Part shown: piece by piece, positions 1-23,514 of the stretch | How positions within the stretch are numbered: position 1 is the stretch's first letter | Layout: each line of letters starts with the position of its first letter | From: a virus | IMG/VR virus record: IMGVR_UViG_3300037842_000514 | Reading direction: 5' to 3' (one strand) | Length of the DNA stretch: 53,870 nucleotides | Notes under the pieces: model-generated | The model's database searches: none | What the model saw: the letters and a program-made list of their open reading frames with translations, nothing else | Told to the model about the DNA's origin: nothing | Position numbers and translations under genes: made by a program

Positions 1-1370
1 AATGTAAATCTCTTTCTAGGTTTCCAGTTTTTTAATGTTGAATCTATATCTCTAACAAAATTATGACACATGTGTTTTGACGACATCCCGCCATCGTCAG
101 ACAATACAAACTCTCTACCAGACAAACCTTTCGATTTTCGGAGATCATGCCCATCATCATACCATTCTTTTAAATTATCAGCTACTTCATCAAATCTACA
201 TCTATCATCAAAAATATATGGTGTTGGAACTGAGCCTTGCAATGACCTACATGAAGGCCACACTGGCTTAACCCATTCACCGCATGTTAAATCTGGGTTA
301 TTTTTCCACTTTGTATCATCATGTAATGTATGAACCCACTCATAATCATCTGACGTTAGGTATTTATCTTTAAATTTAAAACCGCATTGGTCTTGCATGC
401 CACCAGTTACGTTTACTATAATAGGTGTCCCCGCCATAAGACTTTCAGCTGTACCTAACCCAAACCCCTCATTAGAAGCCATATTGACTGTAACGTCTGC
501 TATATTATATAAGAAATTTAAATATTTTGTATCTAATTTCTGATGTGAGAAGATTACTTTACAATCTGGTGCCATTTCTCTAGCAACCTCAGGCAGGTCT
601 GTCCCATTCTTATCAATTGGTTGTGTGTGCATAATTAAAGCGCATTTGGAAGACTGTTCTGGTGTTAGTTGATCGCAGAATGATTTGTATGCTAAAATAA
701 TATCACCTGGAACTTTTCGTCGTATATTTCTATTATTATAGAACATGACAAAATCTACATCAGGGCCTAAAACATTTGTTTTATATTTCTGAAATTCATC
801 CCACTCTTCATGAACTTCATCTAAAGGGTAAAATTGATCTTCGTTGATTCCATGTGGTGAATATGTTACCTGCCACGGTTCATATTCTGATCTAACATTT
901 TTTACAATATCAACAGTTTGTTTGGATATATTGAAAAGTGAATCCACTGAATCGTAATACTCCCTATTCCACATAGGCCATGGCATTGAATCCCATATAT
1001 TATAATACATGATTGGTATATGTTGTCTAATTTCATGCTCCATCTGAAACAACCACACCCAAAAGCGGGGATCAGTGTATATTAAAATACCATCAGGTTT
1101 ATCTACGTTGATCACTTCTCTCAACATTTCTTGATTACCATACCCACTTATAGGGTATATTTTTAAAGACGCATCAGTAATTCCCGTTTCCTTTCTAATA
1201 GCGTCATTCATATCAACTATCTTACCTTCTTCTGGATGTTTTATAGCACCACCCATTTGAACCCAATCGTATTTATGTAATGTGCCCATCACAAATTCTC
1301 TAGACATAGTTCCGACGCCACTGCTCATCCTCAAATCATCAGATAATAGTAATATTTTCTTTTTTGACAT
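1..1370 (-). CDS. GT-B fold glycosyltransferase (GT4-like), truncated at the window edge
   Basis: Absent from the ORF track because there is no stop in the window. Manual translation from ATG 1370: MSKKKILLLSDDLRMSSGVGTMSRE...NRNIRRKVPGD...ASNEGFGLGTAESLMAGTPII; EGFGL-x3-E is the GT4 nucleotide-sugar motif. Confidence 0.8.
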   Translation of the reverse strand, partial: MSKKKILLLSDDLRMSSGVGTMSREFVMGTLHKYDWVQMGGAIKHPEEGKIVDMNDAIRKETGITDASLKIYPISGYGNQEMLREVINVDKPDGILIYTDPRFWVWLFQMEHEIRQHIPIMYYNIWDSMPWPMWNREYYDSVDSLFNISKQTVDIVKNVRSEYEPWQVTYSPHGINEDQFYPLDEVHEEWDEFQKYKTNVLGPDVDFVMFYNNRNIRRKVPGDIILAYKSFCDQLTPEQSSKCALIMHTQPIDKNGTDLPEVAREMAPDCKVIFSHQKLDTKYLNFLYNIADVTVNMASNEGFGLGTAESLMAGTPIIVNVTGGMQDQCGFKFKDKYLTSDDYEWVHTLHDDTKWKNNPDLTCGEWVKPVWPSCRSLQGSVPTPYIFDDRCRFDEVADNLKEWYDDGHDLRKSKGLSGREFVLSDDGGMSSKHMCHNFVRDIDSTLKNWKPRKRFT

Positions 1371-1384
1371 TTATATCCCTTGTT

Positions 1385-1579
1385 TCAAAATCCACTACCG
1401 CTCACTGAGAGTCGGTCGTATTTGTTAATTTCATCTTTAAAATCTTCATCTTCAACATATTTATCCATTGATCTATTTACCAGCTTTTGTAAACTGAAAT
1501 CGTCTTCTATCGATATAGTTTTAAATCTTTTATATAACTCTATTAATATTTTAACTGATGTTAATTTAGTGATGCTCAT
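1385..1579 (-). CDS. small protein, possible ribbon-helix-helix DNA-binding protein
   Basis: 64 aa; strand-helix-helix pattern (LTSVKI / LYKRFK / SLQKLVNRSMDKY); GGGG-type RBS upstream. Confidence 0.45.
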   Translation of the reverse strand: MSITKLTSVKILIELYKRFKTISIEDDFSLQKLVNRSMDKYVEDEDFKDEINKYDRLSVSGSGF

Positions 1580-1616
1580 AGTAACCCCTTAACTTTATAT
1601 ATATATATATATCGAA

Positions 1617-2021
1617 TTAATTTAAAATTACTACTTTTTTATTTAAATCTTCAGCGTATCCTATAGTATTCAGCGTCCCTTTAGACACCTTACCTTCAGG
1701 TATAAACGCTATAATGCAATCACTATATTCAGCGATTTCTTTATTACGTTTAGCATAATACCAAACACCATACGGCTTACCATAATATTTAGATTCATTA
1801 ACACAGTGTTGATTATATGTGTAATGTGCTGGTGGGAATTCTGAGTATTTCATATCAAACTCTAGTGCATATTTCTTAGCTAAACCATCAGCTCCGAACT
1901 TTTGACCACCACTCACTATCTCAACATCATCGCCGAACTTTTCTTTTAATTTAAAGATAAACTCCTTAATCTTCTTACGGTTAGTGTACTCTCTGCTACC
2001 AACAATGCCAACTCTTTTCAT
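1617..2021 (-). CDS. SLOG superfamily (DprA/YspA-like) nucleotide-binding protein
   Basis: RVGIVGSR, IVSGG..GADGLA, RNKEIAEYSD.IIAF and SKGTLNTI motifs. Confidence 0.7.
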   Translation of the reverse strand: MKRVGIVGSREYTNRKKIKEFIFKLKEKFGDDVEIVSGGQKFGADGLAKKYALEFDMKYSEFPPAHYTYNQHCVNESKYYGKPYGVWYYAKRNKEIAEYSDCIIAFIPEGKVSKGTLNTIGYAEDLNKKVVILN

Positions 2022-2035
2022 AACATCCCCTATTT

Positions 2036-2064
2036 AATTTACAACATTATTCTATACAATACAA
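2036..2064 (-). promoter_or_regulatory. sigma70-like promoter TTGTAT-17 nt-TAAATT
   Basis: Intergenic, upstream of the 2021 start; same -10 context (TTG-TAAATT..AAATAG) as the site before polB. Confidence 0.5.
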
Positions 2065-2072
2065 CCATTATT

Positions 2073-2519
2073 TTACACCCCATCATTTCTTTTTTGTTTT
2101 CTCACCTGTTCTTTAGGTGATAGGCAAAACGATGCGCATTTGTTAAATTCTTCTATACCGTTTAAAATCCCATATGCGCCATAAGGTTCGGGATATTTAT
2201 AATTAAATCTAAAGAAAATATTCGAATAATTACATGCATCAGATTCTACATTATACCATACGTAATCACTTCTATCTAATTCATTATTGGGTCTAATTTT
2301 TGTTTTATAATGTAACACTTTTTCATATTTTAACATAAAATCTTTTAGACTAGAATGGGGTATCACGTCATCAGAATCATACCATAAATATAACTTGAAT
2401 TGTGTACTTAAATCTGAATACGACTTGACAATATTATCCATAACAACACTTTCATATGTAGTGTCTATAAAATCAGACAAATTCAATCTTAATGATAAAT
2501 TAATATATGGTGTTTCCAT
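2073..2519 (-). CDS. hypothetical protein
   Basis: 148 aa ORF in the operon, abutting the upstream gene. Confidence 0.6.
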   Translation of the reverse strand: METPYINLSLRLNLSDFIDTTYESVVMDNIVKSYSDLSTQFKLYLWYDSDDVIPHSSLKDFMLKYEKVLHYKTKIRPNNELDRSDYVWYNVESDACNYSNIFFRFNYKYPEPYGAYGILNGIEEFNKCASFCLSPKEQVRKQKRNDGV

Positions 2520-3391
2520 TATCGTTTCCTATCACATAGTTCTGGTTTAGTTTTAAACTCACACCATTTGCAATTCTTTGCAGAAGGTTCTTTTCTGTAA
2601 GTTCCGGTTGTTTTATATTCACCATCAATAAAAGCGTCATCTAAAAAACTATTAAATTGAATCATAGTCTTGTTTATAGATGGAGTTCCATTAGCTGGGG
2701 CGAATATTTGTATTCTCTTTTGCGGAAAATCGACTTTTTCGTACAATTTACGTTTAACTATAAAGAATTCAACATCTATACTATTCAAAGGTACGTTGTA
2801 TTGTTTTGAATAAAATTGCTTATACAACAATAACTGATCGCTTTTTACTTTATCTTGCTTCATCCACTTATTCCACCCAACAGTAGATGTTTTTATATCT
2901 ATAATTTTGATACGATTTCTAAGAGTATCCTTTATAGCTATATCAATAAAACCTCTAAATGAGATGTGGTCTGATACTTGATGCTTCAACTCAATCTCAA
3001 CACCCAATAACTCATATCCTCTTTTAGAAAAATATTTATTCCTATTTTTTTTCAAGTAATCTAATATCGTAACTCCATCGTAGTAAAACTCTACCATTTC
3101 ATCTTGAGTACAAGGTTCTACCCCAGACGAGCTCTTTGTTATATCGATAAACTGCTCTTTCATACTAGCTAACAACATTGCGTTTAAGTCTAGGGCATCT
3201 GCATCTTTAGCAGTTTTAGTATACATTATAGTTAAATACTCTTGTATCACTTCATGAGCTGCACTTCCAAAAAGTGTAAATATATTCCCATGAAATTCTC
3301 GCATATCATCGACATAATTTAGTTTCCACTTCCAAGGGCACTGAACCCATTGTGAGAACTGAGAATAGCTTACAGACTTTATATCACTCAT
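2519..3391 (-). CDS. PD-(D/E)XK exonuclease, RecB/Cas4-like, with a probable Fe-S staple
   Basis: SYSQ..QCPWKW at the N-terminus; GFIDIA...IIDIKTS nuclease motif; QLLLY; C-terminal CKWCEF...C. Confidence 0.8.
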   Translation of the reverse strand: MSDIKSVSYSQFSQWVQCPWKWKLNYVDDMREFHGNIFTLFGSAAHEVIQEYLTIMYTKTAKDADALDLNAMLLASMKEQFIDITKSSSGVEPCTQDEMVEFYYDGVTILDYLKKNRNKYFSKRGYELLGVEIELKHQVSDHISFRGFIDIAIKDTLRNRIKIIDIKTSTVGWNKWMKQDKVKSDQLLLYKQFYSKQYNVPLNSIDVEFFIVKRKLYEKVDFPQKRIQIFAPANGTPSINKTMIQFNSFLDDAFIDGEYKTTGTYRKEPSAKNCKWCEFKTKPELCDRKR

Positions 3392-3801
3392 TTATGCCAT
3401 TTCCCATTCTTTACAATTTGTGCTATTATACCATATACAGCTAAATCTGCAAAAGCATCCATCACCGGTTCAGCTTCACCTTCAACATCTCGTTTGATTA
3501 TAAGATTGATTAATCTATTTACCTTATCATTAATACGTACGACTAATGCTGTGAGTGATAGTTTAACATCAGATGTATCCTTTAGATCAGTTCCCATACT
3601 AATGTTACCTGGGCCGTAATCGTGATGTTTTATCGCGAATAGGTTATATTGTTCTCGTTGAATTCTTCTGAACTCAGCCATCAATTCCGGATATTCTCGT
3701 TCTACCAACTGAATTACGTTATCACTGTCGTGGTTGATATCTGCTTCGAGGTCATCGTTCCCGTATAATATACGTTTACTACCTTCTTTCAAGTTAGTCA
3801 T
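3388..3801 (-). CDS. Nmad1/DUF1599 nucleotide-modification-associated alpha-helical protein
   Basis: LFAIKHHDYG..NI, VRINDKVNRL.NL and DAFADLAVYGII motifs. Confidence 0.7.
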   Translation of the reverse strand: MTNLKEGSKRILYGNDDLEADINHDSDNVIQLVEREYPELMAEFRRIQREQYNLFAIKHHDYGPGNISMGTDLKDTSDVKLSLTALVVRINDKVNRLINLIIKRDVEGEAEPVMDAFADLAVYGIIAQIVKNGKWHK

Positions 3802-4346
3802 TATATTATCCTATCAATTATACCATATTTCAACGATTCTTCTGCTGTTAAATATGTATCTTGTTTACTAACTTCATCCCAGAATGTATGTGATTTGGTT
3901 GTAACGTCACCTAATATTCGATTAATATTCGACTGAAGCTTTTTTAAGTGATCTGCACCCTTCAGCACATCTGACGTCTTCCCAGCTTCAAATGCTGAGC
4001 CTTCATGTATCATCACTGTAGAATTTTCAGTCATAGTTCTCTCACCAGTACCACATGCTAGTATAACTGCTGCAGCTGACATAGCTGTCCCCACAGCATG
4101 GGTATTCACTTTAACTGGTAATGACTTAAAGTAATCAATAGTCCCTAACATTGAATATACATCACCACCATATGATGATATGATAAGATTAAGATCTTCC
4201 CCTCCATTATACTGAGACATTGCATCAAATCTAGACATAATTGAATGTAACTGATCTGAATCAATATCGTATGTTAGATATACTGTATTGGATTTGAGGT
4301 TGATGCCCCATTCTATTTGTTTAAACAGATTGTCTATACTACTCAT
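3801..4346 (-). CDS. clpP: ClpP-family serine protease
   Basis: SSYGGDV, AMSAA (catalytic Ser), MIHE (His), DTYLTAEE.LKYGIID. Confidence 0.85.
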   Translation of the reverse strand: MSSIDNLFKQIEWGINLKSNTVYLTYDIDSDQLHSIMSRFDAMSQYNGGEDLNLIISSYGGDVYSMLGTIDYFKSLPVKVNTHAVGTAMSAAAVILACGTGERTMTENSTVMIHEGSAFEAGKTSDVLKGADHLKKLQSNINRILGDVTTKSHTFWDEVSKQDTYLTAEESLKYGIIDRII

Positions 4347-11837: not shown

Positions 11838-14351
11838 TTAGAAGAACCGCTCTAATGAAACTTTAGTATCAATTGGCTCAGTCCACGATAACGCTTCATA
11901 AATAATTTTTACTTTTTTATATAACGCGTTATCAAATATAGTATCATAATCAATATACGTTTTTATAAAATCTAAGATTTCGATCGGATCATCGTATCCT
12001 TTAAAAGCTATAGACTTGTAATTTAAACTATTAGGTTTAAGATATATCCACTTCACTTTTTCTCCACTATTAATCGGTGTATATTCATCGCTGACTTTTA
12101 AATATTTTAACAGATCGTTATATCTCACTGATGATTTTACATGAATCGGTGTTCCTTTATTAAATTCAGTTGCTATGCTATCACTTTTCCTTATAAATTT
12201 CTTTATATTTGATATGCCAGTTGGTGAAGCAATCTCATCTATAGGAAGAGTTTTCATGTGAGATTTAAAACTCATTATATCATTATCTATTTTGGATTTA
12301 TCCACATCTCCCAATATATCAACAAGCACTCCCATCATTAATTTTTGAAAAGATGGAGCAAACGAACTTTTAATAACATCCAAACCTTTAATATCTAACC
12401 TATCACACGCGATACCATTATCATTGATAATTTTTTGAGCATATCGTTTCTTAGTAACCCAAAAAGCTCGTTTAGCTATAACTTCTTGTTTAATATCAAA
12501 TTTATGTGGTCCTTTAATATTTAAAAATCTCTGTGCAAATAGATCATACGAATCATTTAAAAACTTTTGAACATATGATGTGATTCCTAACACTTGACTA
12601 GTCATAAACTGCTCATCTTCATAATCAGCTTTAGGGTATCTGTGCTTAATTATCGGAAGAGCACTTGCAAAAATAGAATCAGTATCTATATACACTACAT
12701 GGTCTTTATCTACATTCAATTCTTTATTATAAATATAATTTACCATCTTCTGTGAATATTTAATTAAATGCTGTCCTGTAAGTGTAATAGCTTCAGAATT
12801 ATCTGTATCGTAAAATCTGAATATCGGTAAACCGAATACTCCATATACTGTATTGAGAAGAATCTTCTGAATATATTGTCTACGATTAAAGTACTCTGAT
12901 TTTGATTGATCGCCAGCATCGTGATATTTTTTAGATAGCTTTCTATATTCTTTTCGTTCATTGAACCATTTTGAGAGAATTGCAGGTATTAATCCAGTTT
13001 TCTCTTGGTTATACATAACTCCAGTTACTGCAATGGATATTTTATTTATGTCTAATAGGGTTTTAACTTCACTTGTATTATACTGTCGTTTAATTTTCCC
13101 ATCGACTATAAAATCATATACTTTATCAGTCCCTTTAAGATATTCATCAATATCCCAACCGTCTAACTTTCCCAATTTCATCTCTGGTGATATATTCATT
13201 GACATTATAATTGACGGATACATTGACGTAATATCTAGATCATATATCCATTTATGTTTACCCGGAATTGGATCTTTTACGTAAGCTCCAACATATTTAA
13301 TGTTAGTAGGGACGTTTGATTTTGGTGCTTTGTTTGGTGCCACTACACCTATTCGTCTCATATACGTTAACATAGCACCTTCAATATATCGACTAGAATA
13401 TACTACATCTTCATATGATATATGACCGAGATGACTAACACCCATAGCTAATGTTATGAAGTCTAACTTCTCGTTCAATTTCACGATCAACTTAACATCT
13501 TGTAAGTTATATTCTATAAATTTATTAATCTCATTTAAATACAAATCAGTTAAGCTTCCATCATAAGACACCTTCTTCTGCCCAACCTCAAGTTCACCAA
13601 TATAGTCTAACCTATAAGATGGTTGTTGTTTAAATGTAAATTTTTTATATAACGTGAGATAATCTAAAACTGAAACACCAGCTATTTTAAATCGTTCTTG
13701 TCTATCGTTGAAATTTACTATACTAATTGGAGATAATGCGTTTGCAATTTCCGATCCCAACACCACCACCGTTCTATTATATAAATACGGTATATCAAAT
13801 CCATCAACATTCCACCCACTTAACACGGTTGGTGCGATTTCAATGTATTTTTGAAAAAACCGTTGCAATAACTCTCCCTCATCAGTAAATAGTTCAACTG
13901 ATACGTTATCTTTAGTGTAAGCAATAGCTTCTGAAGATTGAGTGCAGGTGTATACAAAATAATCATCAGTGGTCTTATCATATAAAGCTATAGATGTTAT
14001 TGGTTGATCTGCAAGTCTCCAATCTGGAAACCCTGCTGATGATTCAGTTTCAATATCAAAGTATAATTCTCTATGCCCTGTAGCAATATCATCAGAATCG
14101 CCGTATTTATCGATTAAGATTCTCGTTTCAATTGGTACGTCACTTTCAAATATCTTGTTTTTTTCGACATCATCATGTGTCCAAAACTGAACTCTCTTTA
14201 AATTATCACCATATAATGATTTATAAGTACCTGCTCCATACTTTTTATAAGCATAACTCTTAACATTAAATTTAGTATATCCAGTCTTATCATCCCAGAG
14301 ATGTACTTCATTGAATTTTTTATGCCGTCTACAGTATATATTCTGATACAA
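11838..14351 (-). CDS. family B DNA polymerase (T4 gp43-like), TTG start
   Basis: ExoI FDIET, ExoII GWNVDGFDIPY, motif A DITSMYPSII, motif B KILLNTVYG, motif C YIDTDS. Confidence 0.96.
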   Translation of the reverse strand: MYQNIYCRRHKKFNEVHLWDDKTGYTKFNVKSYAYKKYGAGTYKSLYGDNLKRVQFWTHDDVEKNKIFESDVPIETRILIDKYGDSDDIATGHRELYFDIETESSAGFPDWRLADQPITSIALYDKTTDDYFVYTCTQSSEAIAYTKDNVSVELFTDEGELLQRFFQKYIEIAPTVLSGWNVDGFDIPYLYNRTVVVLGSEIANALSPISIVNFNDRQERFKIAGVSVLDYLTLYKKFTFKQQPSYRLDYIGELEVGQKKVSYDGSLTDLYLNEINKFIEYNLQDVKLIVKLNEKLDFITLAMGVSHLGHISYEDVVYSSRYIEGAMLTYMRRIGVVAPNKAPKSNVPTNIKYVGAYVKDPIPGKHKWIYDLDITSMYPSIIMSMNISPEMKLGKLDGWDIDEYLKGTDKVYDFIVDGKIKRQYNTSEVKTLLDINKISIAVTGVMYNQEKTGLIPAILSKWFNERKEYRKLSKKYHDAGDQSKSEYFNRRQYIQKILLNTVYGVFGLPIFRFYDTDNSEAITLTGQHLIKYSQKMVNYIYNKELNVDKDHVVYIDTDSIFASALPIIKHRYPKADYEDEQFMTSQVLGITSYVQKFLNDSYDLFAQRFLNIKGPHKFDIKQEVIAKRAFWVTKKRYAQKIINDNGIACDRLDIKGLDVIKSSFAPSFQKLMMGVLVDILGDVDKSKIDNDIMSFKSHMKTLPIDEIASPTGISNIKKFIRKSDSIATEFNKGTPIHVKSSVRYNDLLKYLKVSDEYTPINSGEKVKWIYLKPNSLNYKSIAFKGYDDPIEILDFIKTYIDYDTIFDNALYKKVKIIYEALSWTEPIDTKVSLERFF

Positions 14352-14416: not shown

Positions 14417-15347
14417 TTAATTAGCGTAATCTTGATCATCGTTATCCCCAGCGATTGGTATTATCTCACAAGTGTCGTTATTACAAAACTTGTCGGGTTC
14501 AGCTTCTTCACCTTCAATACCGGCGAAGCTTAACTTTCCTAATTTCGAAAGCATTTTATTGTATTTTTTTTCATCAATTTCCTCATATGGCATTTGTCTA
14601 TAAGCCCCATACTCATGTCTCGGTAATAATGATATCCCTTTTAACTTGTATTGAAAATATTCAAGTACATGTGGTAGTTGTGTAGATTCAACTGCAGGAT
14701 TAAATGTTGCTGTACAACTTACTTGATTGTCTGCCCAATGTCTCTGTAAGAATGCTGCTAGGCTGAATTGTTCCCATATAGATAGTTCTCCTACAGTTCG
14801 AATTCCTTCACCAATATCAATTGGAACCTCAACAACTACTGTCGAATCTTCACTACCAAATGCTGGTTCTAAATTGTAGTTTGCTTTCTTTAACGACTCT
14901 ATCAATTCTGATTGTTTAGATAATCTCATTCGTCGTATATAAAATCTACTTTCCGGATAGTGCATTCCTGGAGTAGCTCCTACTAATAAACTAACAGTTC
15001 CAGAAGGTTTAATGCTACTCAACTTTATACTTCTTGGTACAGCTAACCAATCTGAGTACATCTTATCCCATTTCGTTAGCTCATTATACCCTTCTTCACA
15101 CCACGTTTTTAAAGAATCCAATCCCCTATTAGTAACAAATTGTGCTATACCACTCATCGATGTACCAATTCTTCTATTTCTCAGCATAACTCGATTGGTG
15201 TCAGGCCAGTGTGTTTTTCCTAATGTAACTGTTTTTGCATATAAGTATGCATACTTTAATGTCTTCTTATAATCTTCTAAGTCGTCGTGGTGGTGTGGGA
15301 AAGTTTCCACAAGACAACATAATTCATAAGATTCTAAACTTTGTTCG
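14417..15347 (-). CDS. nrdJ: class II ribonucleotide reductase, 3' exon (C-terminal part)
   Basis: Frame reads EQSLESYELCCLVETFP...RNRRIGTS...IKPSGTVSLL...C-terminal FCNNDTC; joins to 15523-15635 after intron removal. Confidence 0.9.
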
Positions 15348-15522
15348 CTTTTTACGGATTGTATCAGTAAACTTTCAATCTATAAGGTGGACTGTCGCAT
15401 CTTCATTAGAAGTTTCTCCGCTCAGTCTCTCACGCTGGCTTTACCCTTGCGCCCTGTCGGCGTTTCACTCGCCTTCCAAGTCAATCAGGAGAAATTTATA
15501 CTACCCCGGGACTTGTTAGTTA
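15348..15522 (-). mobile_element. 175-nt group I intron without an ORF
   Basis: The 5' exon ends in U (ACTGCCT) and pairs with IGS GGGTAGT (15500-15506) with a U.G wobble. P3 TTTCTCC/GGAGAAA; P7 GAGACTG/ACAGTC; P8 CTTC-TAAT-GAAG; terminal G. Removal restores the frame TGC CTC GAA CAA (C-L-E-Q). Confidence 0.85.
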
Positions 15523-15635
15523 AGGCAGTTGTGGATTAATATATTATTAGCCACAAAATTGTGATTATTTTCTACACTCAAATCGTATACGTCTTGATTT
15601 TTATCATGTAATATTGTTTTAAGCAATCTTCCCAT
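15523..15635 (-). CDS. split intein C-fragment (36 aa) plus the first extein codons of NrdJ
   Basis: MGRLLKTILHDKNQDVYDLSVENNHNFVANNILIHN/C with blocks F and G; GGAG RBS upstream; too short for the ORF track. Confidence 0.88.
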
Positions 15636-16668
15636 AAGATTTAATCTCCGTTAAATAATTGTTAATTGAACTAAAGTATTTTTCGATACTTTTTTTAGTA
15701 ATCCCAAAGGTTTTTGGAACAGCTTCAGTTTTATTTTTTCTCTCTATTATGATATTATTAATATCAGTAATCTCTTTTATGTTGTATAATTCAAGTAAAA
15801 CCCCATACTTTAACATTTTAGTTTTATATGAATTAATTGAACTATTTTTTGGTAATGGTTTTCGTGGTTTACCAATCAAATTATTGTATCTATTAGTGCA
15901 TCCATTCTTTTTACACGTTTTTCTATCGATATCGCTTACAATCCTGTATTCGAATACATCTCCACAAATAATACAATTAGATACTTTTATTGGATCAGTT
16001 ATATCCTTTCCTTCCCAAAATAATTTACTCTCTTCCTTGCGTTGTGCTGATATTATCTCCCGCCTTTTCATACCATCTGGTGTATTATAAAAAGCACGTA
16101 TAGATTTGCTAAGTCTATCAGTATATTTTTTATCAGATGCCCGTTCGGCTGTTTTTTTTCCAATTTTAAGTTTAGTTTCATCTGAAGATGTCGTGCCGTA
16201 TCTTGGATTGTTTTTACCTCTCATATCCACAGTTTTATGGTTTTTAATAGAAGCTTCAATCCATTCTTTAACACCATTTTCAAGTTTATATTTTTTAACT
16301 ATTTTGCTAATGTGTTTATCCCACACTACCAAATACCGTATTCCGATATTTCCAAACAATTTATTGTATTTATAATAATAATCCATAGCTTCTTTTTTAG
16401 AGCTTTTGACTTCTATAATTGTTCTAATTTTATCATTAACAATATGAAAAAAATCAGGCTTGTAACTTTTACCATCAAATTCGTATATTTTACTTTCATA
16501 TAAAAATGACATATTAGCTATATCCAACCATTTAGCAATAACAAATTCACATTTACTGCGTAAATAATATTTTTTATTATCTTTTGTTGTATAATACCCG
16601 ACATAACTTCTATGATTAGTATCACCTCTCTTAATTTTCCCATGTTTTTGTTCACAATATGTTTTCAT
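15619..16668 (-). mobile_element. free-standing homing endonuclease (TnsA-like PD-(D/E)XK with NUMOD3 and Zn-finger) between the intein halves
   Basis: LRSKCE...YE...YKPDF...IIEVKS; GKNNPRYG..SDETKLKIG; CIICG...C...C. Confidence 0.75.
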
Positions 16669-16746: not shown

Positions 16747-18141
16747 TTATGTTATTATTTTAATATTATCATCTTCAGTTAAATCTTTAGCTTCTACATA
16801 CCCCTTATTGGTTGTATAGACTTTATGGTCAGGGGTACAAGTAAGTTTATAGATATTTCCATCTTCTTCAATCTCTAACGTCATGATAGAAACATCCTTT
16901 CTGCTTAACCAAGCGTTAGTAATAACATTGTATTCTAATGATAGAGTATTTTCATTAAAAGTTAATGCTTTAATTTCTTCACCGTTTTTTACCAGTTCTA
17001 CAACTTCTTCAACGGTTAATTTACCTTTATCAGTATTAACTAATGTATCACCAACTACACATGGATTTCCACCAGCTACCCTATGGTCTTTATTATCACC
17101 ACCATTTTTCATACGAGAATACTTTCTCATATTATCTAACCACGCAATTCCAGGTTCACCATTATCTACTATTCGTTTACATATATCAGTATAATCCATT
17201 CCTAATTCAGCGAATACTGAGTTATTGGAAGTCCATCCGTAATCTTCCCTATGAGGGTTTTTCTTGTAATTCTTTAGATCTAAATATTCTTCTGAGTGTG
17301 GATCTCCAAATACAATCTCAGCTGTGCGCCTTACATTACCGGCCACTACACACTTACCAATCAAATTCATGATGTCCACAATTGTAGTTACTGTAATTGG
17401 TTGTCCTATATTGATGTCTAATATTTTTTTAATTTTATTATTAATTTCCTCTAATGGATCAGGACCACTACTAATTCCCCCAAATCCTTTAATGGGTTCT
17501 CCCAACCCTCTGATTAACGAGTAATCAAATTCTACATCTACAGTTCCTACGAAGTAGCTATCCAACACCATCTTTACAGATTCTACCCAACCTTCTCGTG
17601 TATCTGGAATCCGAAATACATTGGATGTTTGTGATAAGTTTAATTTGGGACCTTTAATAACAATCTCACCAGCACCTTTTGTATCGAAACCGACACCCAC
17701 TCCTAACATAGAAGCGTCCATTAGGAATGTGAATGGTTTAGATAAATCTTCCTTAATAGTCTTAGTTGAAACGAACGCACAATTGTTAAGTGCTGCGTAT
17801 AATTTCTTTTCTTCTGTTATAGCAGTTCCCATTGCCCATAACCCACGACCGGGTGGAAGGAATTTCATACTCCACATTCTCTCGTACATTTCTTGAGCTG
17901 AGTTTTGAGCTTGCCATGGATTCCAACCTAATTGGTGCTGTTCAATCCACTGCTTTTGCATATTGTAAGTACCTTCTACAACTCGTCTAATAGTTTCCCA
18001 CCATCTCTCATTTTTACCATTATCTTTGATACGGGAATATGTTCTCATATAAACTAACTCACCAAGACCATTGAAACCGAATGGTGGTTTTTTTCTTTTA
18101 TATTTATTTATAAATGATTCCGTTAAAACAAACTTATCCAT
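16747..18141 (-). CDS. nrdJ: class II (AdoCbl) ribonucleotide reductase N-terminal part fused to a split intein N-fragment (104 aa, 16750-17061)
   Basis: RTYSR, FLPPGRGLW, LNNCAF, GNVRRTAEI, GGNP|CVVGDT (block A), TCTPDHKVYT (block B), then a stop. Confidence 0.92.
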   Translation of the reverse strand: MDKFVLTESFINKYKRKKPPFGFNGLGELVYMRTYSRIKDNGKNERWWETIRRVVEGTYNMQKQWIEQHQLGWNPWQAQNSAQEMYERMWSMKFLPPGRGLWAMGTAITEEKKLYAALNNCAFVSTKTIKEDLSKPFTFLMDASMLGVGVGFDTKGAGEIVIKGPKLNLSQTSNVFRIPDTREGWVESVKMVLDSYFVGTVDVEFDYSLIRGLGEPIKGFGGISSGPDPLEEINNKIKKILDINIGQPITVTTIVDIMNLIGKCVVAGNVRRTAEIVFGDPHSEEYLDLKNYKKNPHREDYGWTSNNSVFAELGMDYTDICKRIVDNGEPGIAWLDNMRKYSRMKNGGDNKDHRVAGGNPCVVGDTLVNTDKGKLTVEEVVELVKNGEEIKALTFNENTLSLEYNVITNAWLSRKDVSIMTLEIEEDGNIYKLTCTPDHKVYTTNKGYVEAKDLTEDDNIKIIT

Positions 18142-21186: not shown

Positions 21187-22379
21187 CAATTTTGTTATCG
21201 TATAATCATTTAAATTATACATCTTATAATTTCTCATAAGTTCGGACTATATCTTTACCAAAATTTTGAATTAATTTTAATACATTCTTCTCTGTTATAT
21301 CAGATCCAAATATACGACATACGTTATATCCACATTCTTTTATTTCATTCAAACGAATATTATCTTTATCCCATACTGATTGAGCTGTTACTACTCTATT
21401 TCCTGGATATTTAATTAATTCATCTGAATCGTATTTCTTTGGATTTGCATGCCAATAATCACCATCCACTTCAAATACTAAATTGAAGTCTGGTAAATAA
21501 AAATCGACATAATATGCTTTTATTTTATCGTATTGATGTATATAGTTTATACCGCTATCTTCCAAAATACTTTTTACTTTTAATTCAATTTTAGTATTTC
21601 TAGAACCGCCAGGTATTTTATTTTTATATTTCCAATTCTGTAATCTTAGATCAGCTTCATCTTTTCCATATTTTTCAAACCACCTTTGCCAATTAGATTT
21701 TCCATAATGGTGATGAGCTGAACCTGTAATTGAACTCCACATTATACTTTCTGGATGATCGTTTACGTATTCTTTCATCACTTTACTGTGATTTTTTCTA
21801 TATTCAGCACTTTGAACTGCTTTTTTTACAGCATCCTTTCTTTTCTGAGAATGTCTACTTATGTCGTTCATTTTACGGCAATGGTTTTTATTACCATCAG
21901 AATAAATCCATTTTGCAAATTTATCGAAATGTGCGTTGGAAATCATTTTTGAATTTGGAAATGATAACTTATATTCATCAGTTGTCATTTTATGTTTAGT
22001 TTTTAAATGTGTATTTGTGATTGATTTAAAATCTGTATTACACAATTCACACTTTATTAATTCACTATTTTGGTATTCAGCGCTCGTGTTATTTTCATCT
22101 TCGTTATACATTTTACTCTCCATTATATCTTTATACATATAAATATAATGAAATGGGAAAACTTTACCCAATTTTTGTATATTAGTTTGAAGATTACTCA
22201 TATTAGTCTCTGAACCTTATTCTCATCACTGAGAGTCTTGGCTGCTGATTGTCCAATCCTACTTTTTTCAAACCGTCACGATTGTCATTACTAACTGCGT
22301 TGTGGTAAGTTAGGCTATCAGGAGTTTCCAGCAATTCACCGAATGTTTTATAGTGGAGGCAAAACATTACTTACGCAAT
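21187..22379 (-). mobile_element. group I intron (1193 nt) in recA carrying a homing endonuclease gene
   Basis: Exon AGTGGTGGT pairs with IGS GCCTCCACT (22352-22360). P GAATTGCTGGAAA, Q AATCAGCAGCCAAG, R GGTTCAGAGACTA (22204-22216), S AAGATATAGTCC (21244-21255), terminal G at 21187. Splicing yields TTSGG|KALPFH. Confidence 0.92.
21224..22111 (-). CDS. intron-encoded Vsr-like (EDxHD) homing endonuclease with an N-terminal C2H2-like finger
   Basis: CELC...H...H; YYVDFY...FEVDGDYWH...DKD. GGAG RBS before ATG 22111 (the ORF stays open up to 22201). Confidence 0.8.
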   Translation of the reverse strand: MYNEDENNTSAEYQNSELIKCELCNTDFKSITNTHLKTKHKMTTDEYKLSFPNSKMISNAHFDKFAKWIYSDGNKNHCRKMNDISRHSQKRKDAVKKAVQSAEYRKNHSKVMKEYVNDHPESIMWSSITGSAHHHYGKSNWQRWFEKYGKDEADLRLQNWKYKNKIPGGSRNTKIELKVKSILEDSGINYIHQYDKIKAYYVDFYLPDFNLVFEVDGDYWHANPKKYDSDELIKYPGNRVVTAQSVWDKDNIRLNEIKECGYNVCRIFGSDITEKNVLKLIQNFGKDIVRTYEKL

Positions 22380-22751
22380 ACCACCACTCGTTGTGTTATG
22401 ATTTACATATCCATTTGCAATATAATTTTCATTATCTTCTACGGATATATCAACAACATTTATTTCATCGTCCACTTTTTTAGCATCTGGATGATTTTTT
22501 AGATGCATGTAGCTATTATCACTACATTTTACTCTATGATTTCCTGTACCTTTTAAATCTCCCAATTTATAATGAGATTTAACTTTAGGTTTAACAAGAA
22601 AATCAAGAATTTGTTTATACTCAACATCACCATCATTATTGACTGATTCTACTTCCAATCCCATACCACTTAAATCTAATGATTCTGGATTATTGTAGTT
22701 CATATCAAATAATTCAGTAAGTTGAGCCATACTAACTGTTTTTTCTATCAT
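22380..22751 (-). CDS. atypically split intein C-fragment (119 aa, 22395-22751) plus a 5-codon RecA exon TTSGG
   Basis: Block B TGNH, block F VVDISVEDNENYIANG, block G HN/T. Confidence 0.87.
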
Positions 22752-23514
22752 TGGTATTCTCCTGTGTCATTTGTTGTAATTTATTATGATATTCACCAAA
22801 AAAAGGTGAATCTTCATCGTATCGTATCTTAATATTAGTTGTTTCAGGATCAACACACCATGGATCTCCAAAGGACACACCTAATTTCTGACGTAGTTGA
22901 TTAGTAAACACTAAAGCTATTTTCTGCCGTCCTATCATTTGAGTAATCTTTCTTAACGCTTTTGAGATAATAATAGCCTTTGCTGTAGCCCAACCATCTT
23001 TATCAAAATCTGCTTCTAATTCTACTTTAGTAGTTGCTGCCGCTAACGAATCCACTAAAATTGTAACTAATCTATCTTTATCGGATTCTCTAACTTTAGT
23101 AACGATTTCTTCAATAGCACTAAATATATCTTCTACAGTTTCCAAATGTAGATAGAGCATATTAGACACATCTACCCCAATAGCTTCCAAAAACTGTTTG
23201 CTAACTGACGTTTCAGTATCCACATAAACTGCCACTCCACCCTTTTTCTGCGTTTCAGTTAGAATATGTGCTCCTAATAGAGATTTTCCACTGGATTCTA
23301 ATCCAGTAATTTCAGTGATTCTACCTACTGCAATACCACCATCTTTCCGATTCGATATTGCTAAATCTAACATCGATGATCCTGTTGAGATAAAATCGCT
23401 AATATCTGTAGGTGTACTATCTGTTCCATCTAGAAAGTATGCAACTTTCATATCTTTAAATTGTTTATTTATATTATCAGCCAAGACATTAGCTAATTCG
23501 TCTCTTATAGACAT
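22732..23514 (-). CDS. recA: RecA/UvsX N-terminal part fused to a short intein N-fragment (41 aa, 22735-22857)
   Basis: GLESSGKS, ILVDSLA, FTNQLRQK.GV.FGDPW|CVDPETT (intein block A), then a stop. Confidence 0.92.
   Translation of the reverse strand: MSIRDELANVLADNINKQFKDMKVAYFLDGTDSTPTDISDFISTGSSMLDLAISNRKDGGIAVGRITEITGLESSGKSLLGAHILTETQKKGGVAVYVDTETSVSKQFLEAIGVDVSNMLYLHLETVEDIFSAIEEIVTKVRESDKDRLVTILVDSLAAATTKVELEADFDKDGWATAKAIIISKALRKITQMIGRQKIALVFTNQLRQKLGVSFGDPWCVDPETTNIKIRYDEDSPFFGEYHNKLQQMTQENTNDRKNS

Follow-up and report, generated by a model that had tools for sequence, protein, structure and literature searches.

A compact ORF-less group I intron beside a split intein in a viral class II ribonucleotide reductase gene

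Introduction

The smallest natural group I introns underpin studies of ribozyme structure, of folding and of the RNA world. The usual 'small' model is the intron of the Azoarcus pre-tRNA-Ile gene, ~205 nt in length and a member of subgroup IC3. In the classification of these introns, P7.1/P7.2 mark subgroups IA1/IA2, and P2 together with L2/L9 clamps marks IC3. Among phages, the introns of Staphylococcus phage Twort are reported to reside in nrdE, the record annotation giving ORF numbers only. The psbA intron of cyanophage S-PM2 reportedly spreads by 'collaborative homing', and the two intervening elements of nrdE in Bacillus phage SPbeta are said to sit at separate sites, with the intein contiguous. 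The S-PM2 intron has a free-standing endonuclease as its neighbour (Zeng, Bonocora and Shub, 2009, as cited in PMC3984707), and the presence of both an intron and an intein in SPbeta nrdE goes back to Lazarevic (1998) and to 'Lightning strikes twice' (Derbyshire and Belfort, 1998), both as cited in PMC3653736. Fractured genes with split inteins, NrdJ loci included, have been described by Dassa et al. (2009; PMC2677866). Elements of 56–81 nt in fungal SSU rDNA have been presented as degenerate 'putative group I introns', and most introns of fungal nuclear rRNA genes (IC1) exceed 200 nt (Harris and Rogers, 2011; PMC3160393). In the open-access literature we found no description of a complete-core group I intron below 200 nt, nor of the intron family reported here.

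In this study, we analyse a 175-nt element that interrupts nrdJ, the gene of a class II (B12-dependent) ribonucleotide reductase (RNR), in a 53,870-nt viral DNA (IMG/VR record IMGVR_UViG_3300037842_000514; this whole stretch is referred to as the window). The Azoarcus intron resembles the nrdJ intron in its minimal P3–P9 core, its few peripheral elements, its lack of an ORF and the bulged A in P7 before the G-binding pair, and it differs in having P2 and tetraloop-receptor clamps, in its site in a tRNA anticodon loop and in being ~30 nt longer; the nrdJ intron has no P2, lies in a protein-coding phage gene and goes undetected by the Rfam group I model RF00028. The fungal elements are likewise naturally very small and assigned to group I, but they keep only P1, P7 and P10, whereas the nrdJ family keeps a complete core. 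The Twort intron at 128404–128648 shares with the nrdJ intron a 7-bp P1 (AGUCCGU/GCGGACU), an AUAAA directly before P3, and the absence of P2; it is longer (~245 nt), scores 44.9 bits with RF00028 and has a different P4–P6/P7 region.

Three further systems resemble the locus in its arrangement. The S-PM2 psbA intron is also a small ORF-less phage intron (RF00028 match of 203 nt) spread through an endonuclease gene outside the intron. However, that endonuclease is an ordinary neighbouring gene without an intein, and the intron is detected by Rfam at 87.8 bits, whereas at nrdJ the endonuclease lies between split-intein halves and the intron starts 5 nt beyond the intein junction. SPbeta nrdE, in the accounts cited above, likewise combines an RNA-level and a protein-level intervening sequence in one phage RNR gene; at nrdJ the intein is split, only 5 nt separate the two elements, and P1 includes intein-coding bases. 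The fractured genes include the same order of N-extein–IntN, free-standing endonuclease and IntC–C-extein in phage class II RNR, but in the portions of that paper concerned with them group I introns figure only as separate hosts of endonuclease genes, not beside a split intein, and the nrdJ intron begins 5 nt after the start of the intein's +1 Cys.

The split-intein nrdJ locus

All genes in this part of the window are on the minus strand (Table 1). The N-terminal part of NrdJ (18141–17062) ends in GGNP and is followed by IntN (17061–16750, 104 aa), which begins CVVGDTLV and runs into a stop codon. The free-standing ORF between the intein halves carries weak signatures (NUMOD3, E 8.5e-4; PHROG 'endonuclease', E 3.8e-4) and had no match among PDB sequences. 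IntC starts at ATG 15635, overlapping the end of the endonuclease ORF, with GGAG 10 nt before the ATG. The junctions GGNP|CVVGDTLV.. and ..ILIHN|C, the free-standing ORF between them and the Intein_splicing profile on both halves together define a split intein. After IntC comes a 5-nt extein micro-exon, TGCCT (15527–15523), so that the unspliced frame reads ..NNILIHN and then Cys-Leu-Asn-stop. The cysteine of the NPCLE motif at this junction is, we assume, the catalytic residue with the thiyl-radical role.

The closest NrdJ from an isolate is only 48.5% identical, and a megablast search of GenBank phages with the whole locus gave no match; a tRNA scan found none. The GGNP|C site of the homologue P0057 is occupied by a contiguous intein that carries an HNH-type insert, without an intron. 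None of the best 120 near-length homologues had a split intein here without the intron. IntC-fused homologues were considered as intron-free alleles and set aside, as they belong to a different intein site.

Table 1. Features of the nrdJ locus and of its intron, in window coordinates
Feature	Position	Strand	Details	Basis
NrdJ N-terminal part + IntN	16747..18141	(-)		Pfam RNR_Alpha, RNR-II_ins_dom, Intein_splicing
Putative homing endonuclease ORF, free-standing	15619..16668	(-)	349 aa; between intein halves	weak annotation
IntC	15528..15635	(-)	36 aa; ends ..NNILIHN	Pfam Intein_splicing, profile positions 129-155, E 2e-8
P1 5' strand	15523..15529	(-)	ACUGCCU, last 7 nt of exon 1; U15523 is the splice-site U.G partner	
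Group I intron	15348..15522	(-)	175 nt; first base U15522, terminal (omega) G15348	helix map, family models R1/R2, exon join
Internal guide sequence (P1 3' strand)	15500..15506	(-)	GGGUAGU	helix map
P3 domain	15413..15494	(-)	7-bp P3 (15494-88/15419-13) around J3/4, P4, P5, P6, P6a, J6/7 and P7 5' strand	
P4	15480-77/15456-53	(-)		helix map
P5	15473-70/15462-59	(-)	4 bp, 7-nt loop	helix map
P6	15451-49/15435-33	(-)		helix map
P6a	15446-45/15438-37	(-)		helix map
P7 region	15389..15429	(-)	G15429, bulged A15428 and 15427-23 (GACUG) paired with 15394-89 (CAGUCC)	
P8	15412-09/15404-01	(-)	4 bp; inside P7 region	
J8/7	15400-15395	(-)	AUGCGA; inside P7 region	
3' domain	15349..15388	(-)	P9.0 + P9, then AAA before terminal G15348	
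P9.0	15385-82/15355-52	(-)	UUAU/GUAA; stacked on P9	
P9	15380-76/15361-57	(-)	GAUUG/CAAUC; 14-nt loop	
Exon 2, C-terminal part of NrdJ	14417..15347	(-)	begins C|GAA CAA = (L)EQSLESYELCCLVETF	

Borders of the intron and the exon join

An earlier note on this DNA, made from the letters alone, had placed a 175-nt group I intron at 15348–15522 with a terminal G. Excision of 15522..15348, read on the minus strand, joins TGC CT|C GAA, which encodes Cys-Leu-Glu and restores GGNPCLEQSLESYELCCLVET, identical in 119 of 119 uninterrupted homologues (mostly 662–671 aa, 77–84% identical) recovered in a database search with the C-terminal part. Since the join reproduces the motif of every one of these homologues, the coordinates in the note are exact at codon resolution; the terminal G is confirmed too, and the reading of the element as a group I intron is supported. 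The 5' splice site falls directly after U15523 and the insertion point after the second base of the Leu codon, 5 nt past the split-intein junction, with the RNR frame resuming at 15346. Restoration of the gene by exon ligation and an omega G are both marks of group I. RNA joining followed by intein trans-splicing is predicted to yield GGNP-C-L-EQSLESYELCCLVET. A 5' splice site one base later, with an 8-bp P1 (CCUU|), was rejected; with it no in-frame terminal G yields the conserved C-L-E. The intron encodes no ORF, has an in-frame UAA at its bases 5–7 and is ~45% GC, against ~30% nearby.

Secondary structure

P1 with its guide sequence, P3, P7 and P8, the elements that the earlier note had picked out by eye, are all located by the helix map, which adds P4, P5, P6/P6a and P9.0/P9. 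The helices follow the order required for group I, P3-P4-P5-P5'-P4'-P6-P6'-P7-P3'-P8-P8'-P7', and P3 and P7 cross in the classical pseudoknot. In the 7-bp P1, the exon strand is made up of AC from the end of the intein's last Asn codon, UGC for the +1 Cys and CU from the start of the Leu codon, and the helix is closed at the splice site by the U15523.G15506 wobble characteristic of group I introns. The L1 loop has 16 nt (15522–15507), two bases of which, G15507 and C15508, could pair with the CG that opens exon 2 in a candidate P10 of only 2 bp.

P1 is followed by P3 after only 5 nt (AUAAA), which leaves no room for P2, whose absence had been suspected. Likewise, J7/3 has 3 nt, and there is therefore no P7.1/P7.2. 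With P5abc and P9.1 also missing, the intron consists of the universal core and P9.0/P9, which bears out the minimal periphery described in the note. J4/5 is A-rich. The guanosine-binding site is likely the pair G15427–C15390 beside the bulged A15428, by analogy with the Tetrahymena and Azoarcus structures; UGAACGACUAAG and AUGCGAUAGUC of the relatives resemble the classical R and S elements.

Some features count against this model. The P9.0/P9 stack contains an A x C mismatch, and P10 is short, as mentioned above. In single-sequence folding of both strands, the element was no more stable than shuffled sequences (z -0.37 and -0.08).

A family of compact introns in viral genomes

A search pattern composed of two conserved core stretches, taken from the window's own motif, was matched in at least 119 IMG/VR viral contigs, and in only 2 contigs among 185,579 prokaryote genomes, both from metagenome-assembled genomes (MAGs). 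These two contigs with the exact core, one from a Methanobacterium MAG (L137) and one from a Dehalococcoidia MAG (L138), may be of viral or prophage origin and have entered the MAGs through binning. Among GenBank phages, sensitive blastn located the intron core twice. The isolate Roseobacter phage CRP-118 has a 172-nt member between two 'ribonucleotide reductase' CDSs (L001:2973-3144), and MW202674 has the core between two 'P22 coat protein' CDSs. The annotation of MW202674 gives its coat gene as two CDSs plus a small 'hypothetical protein' over the intron.

The sites defined by P1 coincide with ORF breaks in many different genes, and the conserved genes broken at these positions encode class II RNR, NrdD, portal and capsid/coat proteins. 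Individual contigs show anaerobic RNR (NrdD; L039), a P22-like portal (L049), capsid genes (L031/L024) and a P22-like coat gene (L002) interrupted. One viral contig (L072:4045-4556) carries two copies of the family core ~470 nt apart, which suggests two members in one gene or in adjacent genes. Nearly all members have a 7-bp P1 with a loop of 8–23 nt, directly before WWAAA and P3, and some contain an ORF inside P8.

Relatives in RNR genes measure 167–180 nt, with lengths of 167 (three distinct sequences), 170, 172, 174 (two distinct), 176 and 180 nt, so that the 175 nt of the window's intron is ordinary rather than an outlier; larger RNR members owe their size to insertions or an ORF in P8. 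The description of the intron as unusually small holds against the ~205-nt Azoarcus model, but not within its own family. In view of the published degenerate introns of 56–81 nt, 'smallest' can apply only to introns that keep the full P3–P9 core. In many members the insertion point in class II RNR follows base 1 of the catalytic Cys codon (AAUCCGU|..), which makes their exon join unambiguous (NPC-x-E). The 13 small relatives examined all end in G and share one P9.0/P9 layout, in which P7' is followed by 3–4 nt, P9.0, P9 with a ~14-nt loop, P9.0', 2–4 nt and G. In their L9 loops (15375–15362 in the window), UG(A/U)UA(A/C) recurs on the 3' side while the P9 stems are unrelated, and this motif may be a tertiary-contact element.

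For covariation, 49 distinct family members were aligned with plain MAFFT. Across the 49 sequences, 97.7% of cells hold standard pairs, versus 39–46% when the 3' partners are slid by 1–3 columns, and 23 of 37 pairs have changed on both sides; none of 500 shuffles reached the observed values. The covarying pairs comprise 7/7 in P3, 4/4 in P8, 3/4 in P5, 6/7 in P1, one in P6a and both variable pairs of P7. The outer P7 pair across the bulge is A-U in 29 members, G-C in 15, U-A in 4 and C-G in 1, and the inner one A-U in 37 and G-C in 12. At the splice site, 46/49 members have U.G and 3/49 have C-G. These counts are biased, since the window's motif served to collect the family and complementarity was the criterion for choosing the P1 rows. 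P4 and P6 lie within the search pattern and hence show no variation, so that covariation cannot test these two helices, which are consistent with the group I order.

The covariance-model search that the note had proposed gave a divided outcome. RF00028 had no match to the nrdJ intron at the gathering score in the whole window or at E<=10 in the local region, no other Rfam family matched there, and RF00028 found nothing in CRP-118 either. By contrast, the family-specific model R2, built from 47 related sequences with the window and its orthologues excluded, matched 15529..15389 end to end with 124.1 bits (E 2e-27), its only match in the 53.9-kb window. The nrdJ intron scores 124–127 bits on the family models, similar to the 138.6 bits of CRP-118. 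RF00028 did recover its controls, namely T4 (105 bits), Twort (101, 97 and 64 bits, plus weaker matches), S-PM2 psbA (87.8 bits, 203 nt) and Pf-WMP3 (32 bits), as well as the recA/uvsX intron in the same window (43 bits). We read the silence of RF00028 as a gap in sensitivity, because the family-specific model and covariation succeed. The other family model, R1, gave a weak match (19.5 bits) to the 5' part of one Twort intron that RF00028 also detects, its middle failing to align because the P4–P6/P7 region of Twort differs. The nrdJ intron family is large, phage-borne and not captured by curated resources.

Further intervening elements in the window

A second group I intron lies in a recA/uvsX-like gene (22404–21223, minus strand). 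RF00028 matches its 5' core at 22404..22120 (E 4e-9, the 43-bit match mentioned above) and again at 21323..21223 (22.6 bits), and between the two matches is a 325-aa ORF (22201..21224) with the PHROG annotation 'HNH endonuclease'. Neither R1 nor R2 matches this intron, whose type differs from that of the nrdJ intron. Upstream on the same strand are ORFs at 23514–22732 and 22751–22371. The upstream ORF reads ..FGDPW and is followed by CVDPETT.., and a 126-aa ORF in the ORF list ends ..GYVNHN|TTSGGIA just before the intron. To judge from these junctions, recA appears to be split by an intein as well.

Orthologues and mobility

The same insertion site is occupied in two lineages, by a 173-nt intron (identical in L018, L032 and L143) and by near-identical 175-nt copies (L142 and L166). 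Where P1, P5 and P9 of these orthologues differ, the changes are compensatory or of the wobble type, and the structure is kept. In the 173-nt lineage, the guide is GGGCAGU, which turns a G.U pair into G-C, P10 has 3 bp and both strands of P5 have changed; P9 differs between the window and L018 by two compensatory changes (U-A to C-G and G-C to A-U). Other ortholog candidates from pattern scans with the 3' domain and the 5' junction were chance matches, with the exception of L142, L143 and L018/L032, and the contigs of P0222, P0156 and P0185 proved to be frameshifted assemblies rather than intron carriers. The outermost two pairs of P1 use bases of the intein's Asn codon, and the guide thus fits the intein-bearing allele; a family member at this codon position in an intein-less RNR (L076) carries another guide, GGGCAAGG, which matches its own exon.

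Between the window and L166, identity reaches 99.7% in IntN, 100% in the endonuclease, 99.1% in IntC and 99.4% in the intron, with 3 differences over ~1,700 positions from IntN through spacer, endonuclease, IntC and micro-exon to the intron, versus 86% for the C-extein protein. Identity at or close to 100% extends ~140 nt into each extein; beyond that it is ~80%, and ~70% further out. The intron lies well inside the transferred block. A near-identical block within diverged exteins is the pattern that would be expected of recent homing with co-conversion tracts, and the ORF-less intron appears to travel with the IntN–endonuclease–IntC cassette by co-conversion. The cassette is nearly identical in two phages and hence arrived recently, so that selection on this copy cannot be read from its sequence.

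Two of the orthologous loci hold other interruptions. In L018 (positions 1-4090; IMG/VR 3300031227_000265), nrdJ has two split inteins, the extra one at ..GNVRR|C.. / ..VSHN|TAEIVFGDP; within the second intein pair, the endonuclease ORF is in at least three pieces, and the 173-nt intron is intact. In L166 (4696-7602), the gene calls break a family B DNA polymerase into two pieces around a 103-aa ORF, which may reflect another intervening element; in the window this polymerase is one ORF of 837 aa (14351..11838).

Discussion

We interpret the element as a group I intron that is functional, lacks an ORF and belongs to a compact subfamily of phage-borne introns, with a probability of about 0.88 as judged from sequence comparison. 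Its anatomy predicts guanosine-initiated splicing. P1 would form in the transcript of IntC and the NrdJ C-terminal part, between the guide and the 7 final bases of the exon, and an external guanosine held at G15427–C15390 of P7 would attack after U15523. The terminal G15348 would then take the place of this guanosine, and the exons would be ligated to UGC CUC GAA. Translation would produce IntC-Cys-Leu-Glu-..., and protein trans-splicing with NrdJ-N–IntN would rebuild the catalytic motif GGNP-C-L-E (NPCLE). As a result of the UAA at intron bases 5–7, unspliced RNA would give only IntC-Cys-Leu-Asn, and RNA splicing would thereby gate the usable C-fragment. Having no endonuclease of its own, the intron would spread by co-conversion within the IntN–endonuclease–IntC block.

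A variant of this reading, compatible with it, is that the intron is genuine and yet too pared-down to fold alone, and is spliced with the help of a protein, for example a chaperone of phage or host origin, or the adjacent endonuclease in a maturase role. Neither P2, P5abc nor P9.1 buttresses the core, P10 is weak, the nested helices have a predicted stability of -35 kcal/mol versus -42.9 for the unconstrained minimum free energy, and in this lineage the intron always adjoins an endonuclease ORF. On the other hand, most family members, the CRP-118 copy included, have no adjacent endonuclease, and in L018 the intron is intact beside a broken endonuclease ORF. GNRA-type L6a loops in many members and the recurring L9 motif, moreover, would suit RNA–RNA tertiary contacts. 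The scarcity of neighbouring endonucleases and these two loop features mildly favour an RNA-only fold, and we regard a dependence on protein as rather unlikely.

It is far less probable that the intron is an inactive relic, either in an nrdJ pseudogene or in a gene whose fragments work without RNA splicing, for instance through trans-splicing to a truncated N-part plus a separate C-part started at GTG 15310. A homing block can spread even while it damages a dispensable gene. The cassette invaded recently, RNR genes of phages can be dispensable, and there is a precedent for split RNRs that assemble non-covalently in phage Aeh1 (PMC3045599). Against this, all conserved core positions are kept, at a score near that of CRP-118, the exons are intact and in phase, and two diverged lineages (175 and 173 nt) maintain compensatory changes; without RNA splicing, moreover, LEQSLESYELCCL, including the Glu of C-L-E, would be absent from any product. 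Least credible of all is that the GC-rich insert is no intron but a translational bypass element, a miniature mobile element or a regulatory RNA. The lack of any Rfam match and the locally raised GC would fit such an insert, but the helix order, the pseudoknot, the U.G pair, the terminal G and the family-wide covariation are specific to group I, and the family interrupts many different genes exactly at the sites that P1 defines.

In its widest form, the proposal is that this is an undescribed, virus-restricted subclass reduced to the universal core (~167–180 nt, no P2), that no natural group I ribozymes with a complete core are smaller than these, which curated Rfam misses, and that the nrdJ intron is functionally fused with a split-intein/endonuclease cassette, its guide pairing with intein-coding bases and the intron moving inside the co-conversion tract of the cassette. 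We advance this combination tentatively, at somewhat less than even odds. As the Rfam group I model misses the family, interrupted genes are recorded as two ORFs, as in the RNR of CRP-118 and the coat gene of MW202674. A family 30–40 nt below the usual model, with at least 119 contigs and also present in the culturable phage CRP-118, would offer a new minimal model and would show which peripheral elements are truly dispensable. The near-identity of the IntN–endonuclease–IntC–intron block between diverged phages is sequence evidence of an intron hitch-hiking on the homing endonuclease of an intein. If the proposal is true, a single homing event would place three selfish elements together at the catalytic Cys codon, and NrdJ expression would depend on RNA splicing and then on protein trans-splicing.
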